Source of the DNA: Escherichia coli
GTDB taxonomy: Bacteria > Pseudomonadota > Gammaproteobacteria > Enterobacterales > Enterobacteriaceae
DNA length: 64,000 nt
NCBI RefSeq assembly: GCF_013122565.1
Contig: NZ_CP053258.1
Strand: one strand, 5' to 3'
Numbering within the stretch: the stretch's first letter is position 1; each line of letters begins with the position of its first letter. Made by a program: the position numbers and the translations under genes. Below, piece after piece: positions 28,642-28,962 of this stretch. Under the pieces are notes generated by a model. The model ran no database searches and was not told the DNA's origin. It saw only the letters and a list, made by a program, of their open reading frames with translations.

Positions 28642-28962
28642 GATTTTATTCCATGTTGATTGATTAGTTACAAATATATATTACCCAATGAAATAGACTA
28701 TCAAAAAACGCTCATTTATTTAGAACCTATCTTTAATTTGAGTGTATGAGCGCACAATAGCCAGGGGGGGGTGAGTATCCTGGAAATTCAGAAAAGTAAA
28801 CTCATTGAGAAGGACGAGCAGAACGCCTGAAAATATGCCTTTCCCTTCAGGTTTGTCTGTGGATACCACTTACTGATTTGAAAGGGTAAGCTGACGTCAG
28901 GCTGTTTGCAAAACTCAGGAGGCAAGCAATGAGGAAACTACTTTCGGTGAAGTGGGGGAGTT

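Follow-up and report, generated by a model that had tools for sequence, protein, structure and literature searches.

A polymorphic, probably neutral poly(dG.dC) tract upstream of icaT (yfdF) in Escherichia coli

Promoter homopolymers that mediate phase variation include the C-tracts of the Bordetella pertussis fim genes and the poly-G tracts of Neisseria porA and opc. In these systems the tract lies either between the -35 and -10 elements or between an activator site and the -10, and its length sets promoter strength. The tract described here resembles them as a poly(G.C) run upstream of a host-interaction gene, with a length that appears to vary by slippage, but it differs in lying upstream of the activator (MxiE) box of icaT, where it alters no known spacing. 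A second point of comparison is the non-coding mononucleotide repeats of E. coli, which were reportedly surveyed by Gur-Arie et al. in 2000 (Genome Res) and by Diamant et al. in 2004 (Appl Environ Microbiol). Like those polymorphic repeats, the tract is an intergenic, uninterrupted run of at least 8 nucleotides that differs by single units between strains, is largely stable within lineages and has no known phenotype; unlike them, it also carries substitutions at its boundary and interrupted forms that we presume to be ancestral. The best-supported view is that the tract belongs to an ordinary class of feature, here sampled unusually well.

The third described system is the icaT promoter itself. 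In two papers from 2022, yfdF, renamed icaT, is described as an AT-rich, H-NS-silenced chromosomal gene that is activated by MxiE and IpgC through an MxiE box and whose product the Shigella type III apparatus secretes; it occurs commonly in phylogroups A, B1, D and E of E. coli and is largely missing from B2 (PMC9241512, PMC9769918). Table S2 of the second paper lists TGAGCGTTTTTTGATAG as the yfdF MxiE box, at a distance of 73 nt from the start of the gene, and the same paper states that the box overlaps the -35 region (PMC9769918). The locus studied here shares with the published promoter an identical box, the same distance to the ATG and a fadL-adjacent island, and differs in that its gene is a 430-aa variant rather than the form of about 352 aa. 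Both groups cloned icaT promoter fragments that start at the fadL stop (primers TAACGCGTTCGCCTGGATAA...) and include the tract without ever varying it; a term search, together with the sections of the papers covered, found no mention of it (PMC9241512, PMC9769918). Fragments cloned as the promoter of icaT, a newly characterised H-NS-silenced gene of the Shigella MxiE regulon, hold a strain-variable tract.

The G8 tract in the window

The window, by which we mean the whole 64,000-nucleotide stretch of E. coli DNA that was analysed, contains ccaGGGGGGGGtgag, which has the eight G on the plus strand, in the local sequence gcc aGGGGGGGGtgag (Table 1). Direct reading confirms the run where the preliminary description had placed it, and the list of open reading frames bears out its position outside coding regions. 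The tract lies 236 nt past the fadL stop, in agreement with the earlier figure of about 240 bp. It was also said to lie about 120 bp downstream of the yfdF stop; the distance holds at 122 nt, but yfdF is read from the minus strand, which puts the tract upstream of the yfdF start codon and not downstream of the yfdF stop. Similarly, the statement that the tract is not in an obvious promoter stands for the core promoter only, because the tract sits in promoter-upstream DNA, with 49 nt between its end and the 5' edge of the icaT MxiE box downstream. The box is invariant in the alignment of loci and the tract is not part of it.

Table 1. Features of the yfdC-yfcZ region (window coordinates unless a locus is named; island boundaries are approximate)
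Feature	Coordinates	Strand	Basis and remarks
yfdC	25186-26118	-	ORFs and RefSeq annotation of homologous loci
mlaA	26412-27167	+	ORFs and RefSeq annotation of homologous loci
icaT island, 1,789 bp, contains the tract	27210..28998	.	comparison with empty-site genomes L119 and L120
icaT island junctions	27168-27209 and 28999-29007; L119:669-729		
yfdF (icaT), 430-aa long variant	27349-28641	-	ORF; RefSeq names; 33.6% GC
AT-rich candidate -10 (TAATAT / TATATT), downstream of the MxiE box	28673..28683	-	sequence; putative placement
MxiE box of the icaT/yfdF promoter, TGAGCGTTTTTTGATAG, 17 bp	28698..28714	-	73 nt upstream of the ATG; identical to PMC9769918 Table S2
CCAGG, Dcm site sequence	28761..28765	+	overlaps the first two G of the tract
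G8 homopolymer	28764..28771	+	direct reading; C8 on the fadL/yfdF (minus) strand
Whole variable segment, bounded by invariant CCA and AGTATCC	28764..28773	+	window allele G8-T-G
CCTGG, second Dcm-type site	28779-28783		pairs with CCAGG as a 5-bp stem around the tract in the RNA fold
Hairpin with 9-bp stem directly after fadL, weak U tail (UUUAACU)	28966..28986	-	sequence; not called by the consensus terminator scan
fadL, divergent allele	29008-30354	-	ORFs and RefSeq annotation of homologous loci
yfcZ	30696-31004	+	ORFs and RefSeq annotation of homologous loci

The tract is the only run of seven or more G or C in the window. It shows no excess over base composition. In dinucleotide-preserving shuffles a mean of 1.37 G8 matches is expected per window, and 58 of 100 shuffles contain at least one, so that composition alone would yield such a run; overlapping G7 matches (two observed versus a mean of 4.97 in shuffles) are if anything depleted. 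The length call itself is reproducible, since the Logan assembly of SRA run SRR11451224 (contig L135) matches the window at 100% identity over 4,293 bp, a stretch that includes the tract.

Allele series across strains and recurrent length change

The preliminary description had proposed comparing the tract length across strains, and this comparison finds it far from invariant, with 17 alleles and a variable segment of 7-12 nt among 111 sequences. The entropy of the tract reaches 3.41 bits in this set, versus at most 1.26 bits in the flanking columns (within 230 nt on the fadL side and 125 nt on the yfdF side), and the 14 nt and 22 nt that immediately flank it are conserved. The tract is therefore the most variable spot of the fadL-yfdF intergenic region. 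Its alleles include pure runs (G7-G10), runs of G6-G10 followed by TG, runs of G5-G8 followed by TTG, and interrupted forms. Single-unit length steps between strains are found in all three series (pure G, TG-ended and TTG-ended), and the longest run observed is G10, as either G10 or G10TG.

Thirteen loci from complete genomes carry 11 alleles. These include G8TG in the window, G9 in K-12 MG1655 and BW25113, G10 in ATCC 8739, G7TG in AS19, G6TTG in FORC_042 and G5TTG in O157, along with G8 (locus L008), G7 (L011), G9TG (L005) and GGGTGGTTTG (L001 and L003); G10TG of FDAARGOS_1058, read later, is a twelfth complete-genome allele. A pattern scan of metagenome contigs gave 106 loci and 16 alleles, led by G9 (23/106), GGGTGGTTTG (17/106), G8TG (16/106), G8 (10/106), GGGAGGTTG (9/106) and G6TTG (8/106), followed by G5TTG and G10 (6/106 each), G9TG, G7TG and G6TG (2/106 each) and G7, G7TTG, G8TTG, AG7 and GGGTGGGTG (1/106 each). 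The region is present in 4,194 of 5,426 complete E. coli genomes, 418 of the 5,426 carry the exact 68-mer of the window allele, and match lengths in an evenly spaced sample of the complete-genome matches range from 65 to 69 nt. G9 is the commonest allele in complete genomes, at about 900 (of 987 exact or near-exact matches, about 85 are truncated by an insertion sequence and were subtracted); in K-12 MG1655 it reads as C9 at NC_000913.3 2462881-2462889.

Alleles also follow lineages. All sampled O157:H7 and O55:H7 matches belong to one length class (66 nt, the class of G5TTG), G8 is shared by all matches from E. coli W and its derivatives, and the sampled K-12 derivatives are G9, with exceptions. 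Besides MG1655 and BW25113, G9 is found in TUM22760; G8 is found in several K-12-derived assemblies (NZ_CP025268.1, NZ_CP026085.1, NZ_CP053603-5, NZ_CP188169.1; L126), among them a second MG1655 record, DH5alpha, NEB10-beta, NEB Turbo, a dam/dcm strain and TUM24769. TUM24769 and MG1655 are one base apart over 6 kb, and that base is in the tract, which is G8 in TUM24769. The difference between G8 and G9 in these assemblies may reflect either real slippage in laboratory lineages or undercalling of homopolymers from long reads, and part of the complete-genome census is therefore uncertain.

Assembly from long reads is known to yield G runs that are too short. Together with the disagreement among K-12-derived assemblies, this raises the alternative that the length variation is mainly homopolymer miscalling and that the true tract is essentially constant. 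We give this alternative a very slim chance. The same alleles recur in similar proportions in complete genomes and in metagenome contigs assembled from short reads, they track the O157:H7/O55:H7 and E. coli W lineages, and many of them differ by substitution (T or TT interruptions, GGGTGGTTTG, GGGAGGTTG) and not by length alone; the window allele, moreover, was recovered from an independent read set.

The tract was described from the outset as slippage-prone, and this is upheld by comparing alleles on identical flanks, where long pure runs differ and short or interrupted alleles are stable. One haplotype defined over 240 nt of flank carries five alleles (G7, G8, G9, G10 and G6TTG), and another carries G8, G9, G10, G8TG and G6TG. 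Among sequences with identical 500-nt flanks on each side, one group contains G8TG, G9 and G10, and with identical 1,000-nt flanks on each side one group contains both G9 (5 sequences) and G8 (1 sequence). The alleles GGGTGGTTTG, GGGAGGTTG, G6TTG and G5TTG are invariant within their own haplotype groups, and GGGTGGTTTG is unchanged on more than 10 distinct haplotypes, including that of the most divergent locus, L003. Pure runs of at least 8 G are thus unstable and the interrupted form is stable, a pattern that fits replication slippage. At the level visible in assemblies, the tract is unlike a classical high-frequency phase-variable locus.

The distribution of alleles also suggests a direction of change. 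The occurrence of G8TG and G10 on one background implies a T-to-G change at the run boundary, and the interrupted form is probably ancestral; this polarity is read from the allele distribution, since a scan of GTDB species representatives returned no match to the locus that could serve as an outgroup. In the scheme that we favour, an interrupted sequence such as GGGTGGTTTG would have become a pure G run through T-to-G changes. At about 8 G, strand slippage during replication would begin to add or remove single G, and substitutions of T at the 3' edge of the run would occasionally merge or split it. The outcome would be the allele series now present across E. coli.

Taken together, we consider it about 70% probable that the tract is a neutral, slippage-prone poly(dG.dC) repeat in non-coding DNA of a horizontally acquired icaT island. 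The tract has several of the properties expected of a hypermutable mononucleotide repeat, namely a run of at least 8, polymorphism by single units and recurrent change on identical backgrounds. Pure runs of 8-10 G stay common instead of decaying, and their persistence could reflect either a mutational equilibrium or weak selection. As one of the rare long G/C runs of E. coli and a real population-level indel hotspot, the tract can mislead variant calling and assembly polishing, and it might be used as a marker for fine-scale typing.

The tract and expression of icaT

The main rival to a neutral repeat, which we regard as unlikely, is that the length or rigidity of the tract modulates icaT transcription in cis, as a graded switch of the contingency type. 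Length could shift the MxiE box in phase or in distance relative to an upstream element (a site for H-NS nucleation or bridging, or for another factor), or the tract could act as a GC-rich barrier to the spreading of an H-NS filament. The appeal of this proposal lies in the position of the tract, in promoter-upstream DNA close to a validated activator box and at a step in composition, with 45% GC in the spacer from tract to fadL and 29% from tract to the icaT ATG. It is also in keeping with the high polymorphism of the tract and with what the two papers report of the adjoining gene, which is silenced by H-NS and encodes a type III secretion substrate (PMC9241512, PMC9769918). If the proposal were true in its H-NS form, tract length would tune how strongly a type III secretion substrate is expressed, at basal level or on induction by MxiE, and the tract would represent a contingency-type locus in E. 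coli and Shigella.

Several observations argue against such tuning. The tract is not placed between the -35 and -10 elements, nor does it separate the activator site from the core promoter, and its length leaves the spacing from the MxiE box to the candidate -10 unchanged (the -10 is placed on the statement that the box overlaps the -35 region; PMC9769918). Every segment length from 7 to 12 nt occurs, so no helical phase is preserved or favoured, and interrupted alleles that do not mutate are common, at about 25% of metagenome contigs. MxiE with IpgC is reported to activate icaT in both MG1655, whose allele is G9, and O157:H7 ATCC 43888, which presumably carries the G5TTG found in the O157:H7 genomes examined, and E. 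coli with the icaT locus is described as normally lacking MxiE and IpgC (PMC9241512). The paralogous MxiE-box promoters of K-12, those of yccE and yjgL, lack a G/C run, and their upstream regions resemble that of icaT in the box alone; the yjgL box is about 48 nt from the preceding gene, which indicates that sequence further upstream is not generally needed.

Searches for other regulatory features around the tract were negative within their scope. A scan of both strands of 27000-31000 against Rfam 15, with E up to 1, matched nothing in the fadL-yfdF spacer or close to it; the sole two matches in this interval, at 27081-27269 beside mlaA, are far under the gathering scores. Scans of 28400-29200 for sigma-70 promoters and intrinsic terminators placed no site at the tract, and their counts equal the expectation from shuffles. 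Folding of 201 nt of minus-strand RNA around the tract gave a z-score of -0.96, and the CCAGG/CCTGG stem is not significant. On the question of function, the evidence leans to no consequence.

A further possibility is phase variation at the level of coding, in which changes in the tract would frameshift a 49-codon ORF that starts with GTG (28869-28720, minus strand). The tract does lie inside this mechanically called ORF, yet the ORF has no convincing ribosome-binding site and is unannotated in all RefSeq records examined, the common alleles differ by lengths that are not multiples of 3, and the other frames are open only briefly. We find phase variation of this kind extremely improbable, and the small-ORF reading of the tract was rejected as that of a mechanical ORF whose frame is broken by the allele lengths. 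A neutral repeat is the reading we retain: changes in tract length are most likely neutral, and they alter neither the spacing from MxiE box to -10 nor any reading frame.

The icaT island, insertion sequences and neighbouring genes

The tract is carried by an island whose boundaries were set by comparison with two genomes that have an empty site. About 1,100 of the 5,426 complete E. coli genomes lack a match to the spacer, and most of these are empty-site genomes. We considered whether the tract might be a scar of the island junction. It lies 227 nt inside the fadL-side junction, and given the positions of both junctions (Table 1) this candidate was rejected.

In empty-site genomes mlaA and fadL share one bidirectional terminator, AAAAAAGGTGAGTCGCAAAACTCACCTTTTTT. 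In island-bearing strains the hairpin at the end of fadL is instead carried by the island and is weaker than the empty-site terminator; it is the probable terminator of fadL in these strains. We further note that the loop of this hairpin reads CTATG in the window, in O157 and in 2012C-4221, and CATAG, the reverse complement, in K-12-like strains, with stems that are identical between the two groups. Such a loop inversion is typical of template switching at a palindrome.

The replacement of a strong terminator by a weaker hairpin bears on the proposal that the C8-C10 run in RNA reading through from fadL, which is co-directional with yfdF (both on the minus strand), helps to load Rho and so stops read-through into icaT. 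This proposal can draw on the poor U tail of the post-fadL hairpin, on its absence from the calls of the terminator scan and on the C/G ratio of minus-strand RNA, which in 78-nt windows is about 2 across 28840-28723 and 2.3 at 28960-28883. The enrichment in C is modest, however, alleles with merely 3-5 consecutive C are frequent, Rho loading sites need no homopolymer, and a literature search on this tract and on Rho termination after fadL found no paper and gave no termination data. We therefore judge a role of the tract in Rho loading to be very unlikely.

For insertion, members of the IS110 family use defined short targets, to which an RNA encoded by the element guides them. ISEc20, a 1,450-bp member of this family, is found inside the tract in about 85 complete E. 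coli genomes, in the arrangement G6, element, G3 (for example L012:2535-3984, inserted at the equivalent of window 28769/28770), and the tract is thereby shown to be a landing site for ISEc20. The element also occurs at five other independent sites (L128, L130, L131, L132 and L133), with G4-G7 on the left and G2-G4 on the right. The six sites together suggest that ISEc20 may target G runs; a description of such targeting, or of ISEc20 targets, was not found in the searchable literature. ISEc20 resembles other IS110-family elements in that all six of its independent sites are flanked by G runs, one of them in the middle of the tract, and it differs in that its target rule is deduced here from six sites, out of about 1,500 copies of the element in the complete genomes. 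The 228-nt non-coding end of the element folds strongly (z-score -3.25) but has no match in Rfam, and no guide RNA was recognised. If general, the location in G runs would define a target rule for an IS110-family element; the practical value of the tract itself is modest, and the placement of ISEc20 in G runs is the more interesting by-product.

These insertions give a second form to the idea that the tract is not neutral, namely that it persists as a preferred ISEc20 landing site, with a length that would govern how easily the element inserts upstream of icaT; the first form is that length tunes the reach of H-NS over the icaT promoter. We hold a non-neutral tract of either form to be distinctly improbable. 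IS1 is present as well, between the tract and fadL in the fadL-yfdF spacer of FORC_042 (L004:2277-2974) and inside yfdF in strain AS19 (L002:522-1219). The IS1 copies and ISEc20 together mark the small AT-rich island as a frequent landing zone for insertion sequences.

Of the genes around the tract, fadL and yfdF are mosaic. mlaA and yfcZ are 98-99.5% identical to those of K-12, O157, 2012C-4221 and O145. The fadL of the window has about 76% nucleotide identity to fadL of K-12, O157 and 2012C-4221 and 99.8% to that of O145:H28 RM12761. A divergent fadL amid conserved mlaA and yfcZ points to allelic replacement of this gene, a known phage-receptor gene. The best complete genome has only 97.6% identity to the window over 10 kb because fadL and yfdF are both mosaic.

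The 430-aa YfdF protein, for which a Pfam search returned no family, has an exact match in E. coli QJU27567.1. Within its gene, at 28148-28171, the coding strand carries an in-frame hexanucleotide repeat, (GATATT)4, which is translated as DIDIDIDI. The copy number of this repeat is 2-5 in other loci with the long variant of icaT, and the repeat is missing from most loci, which have the 352-aa form.
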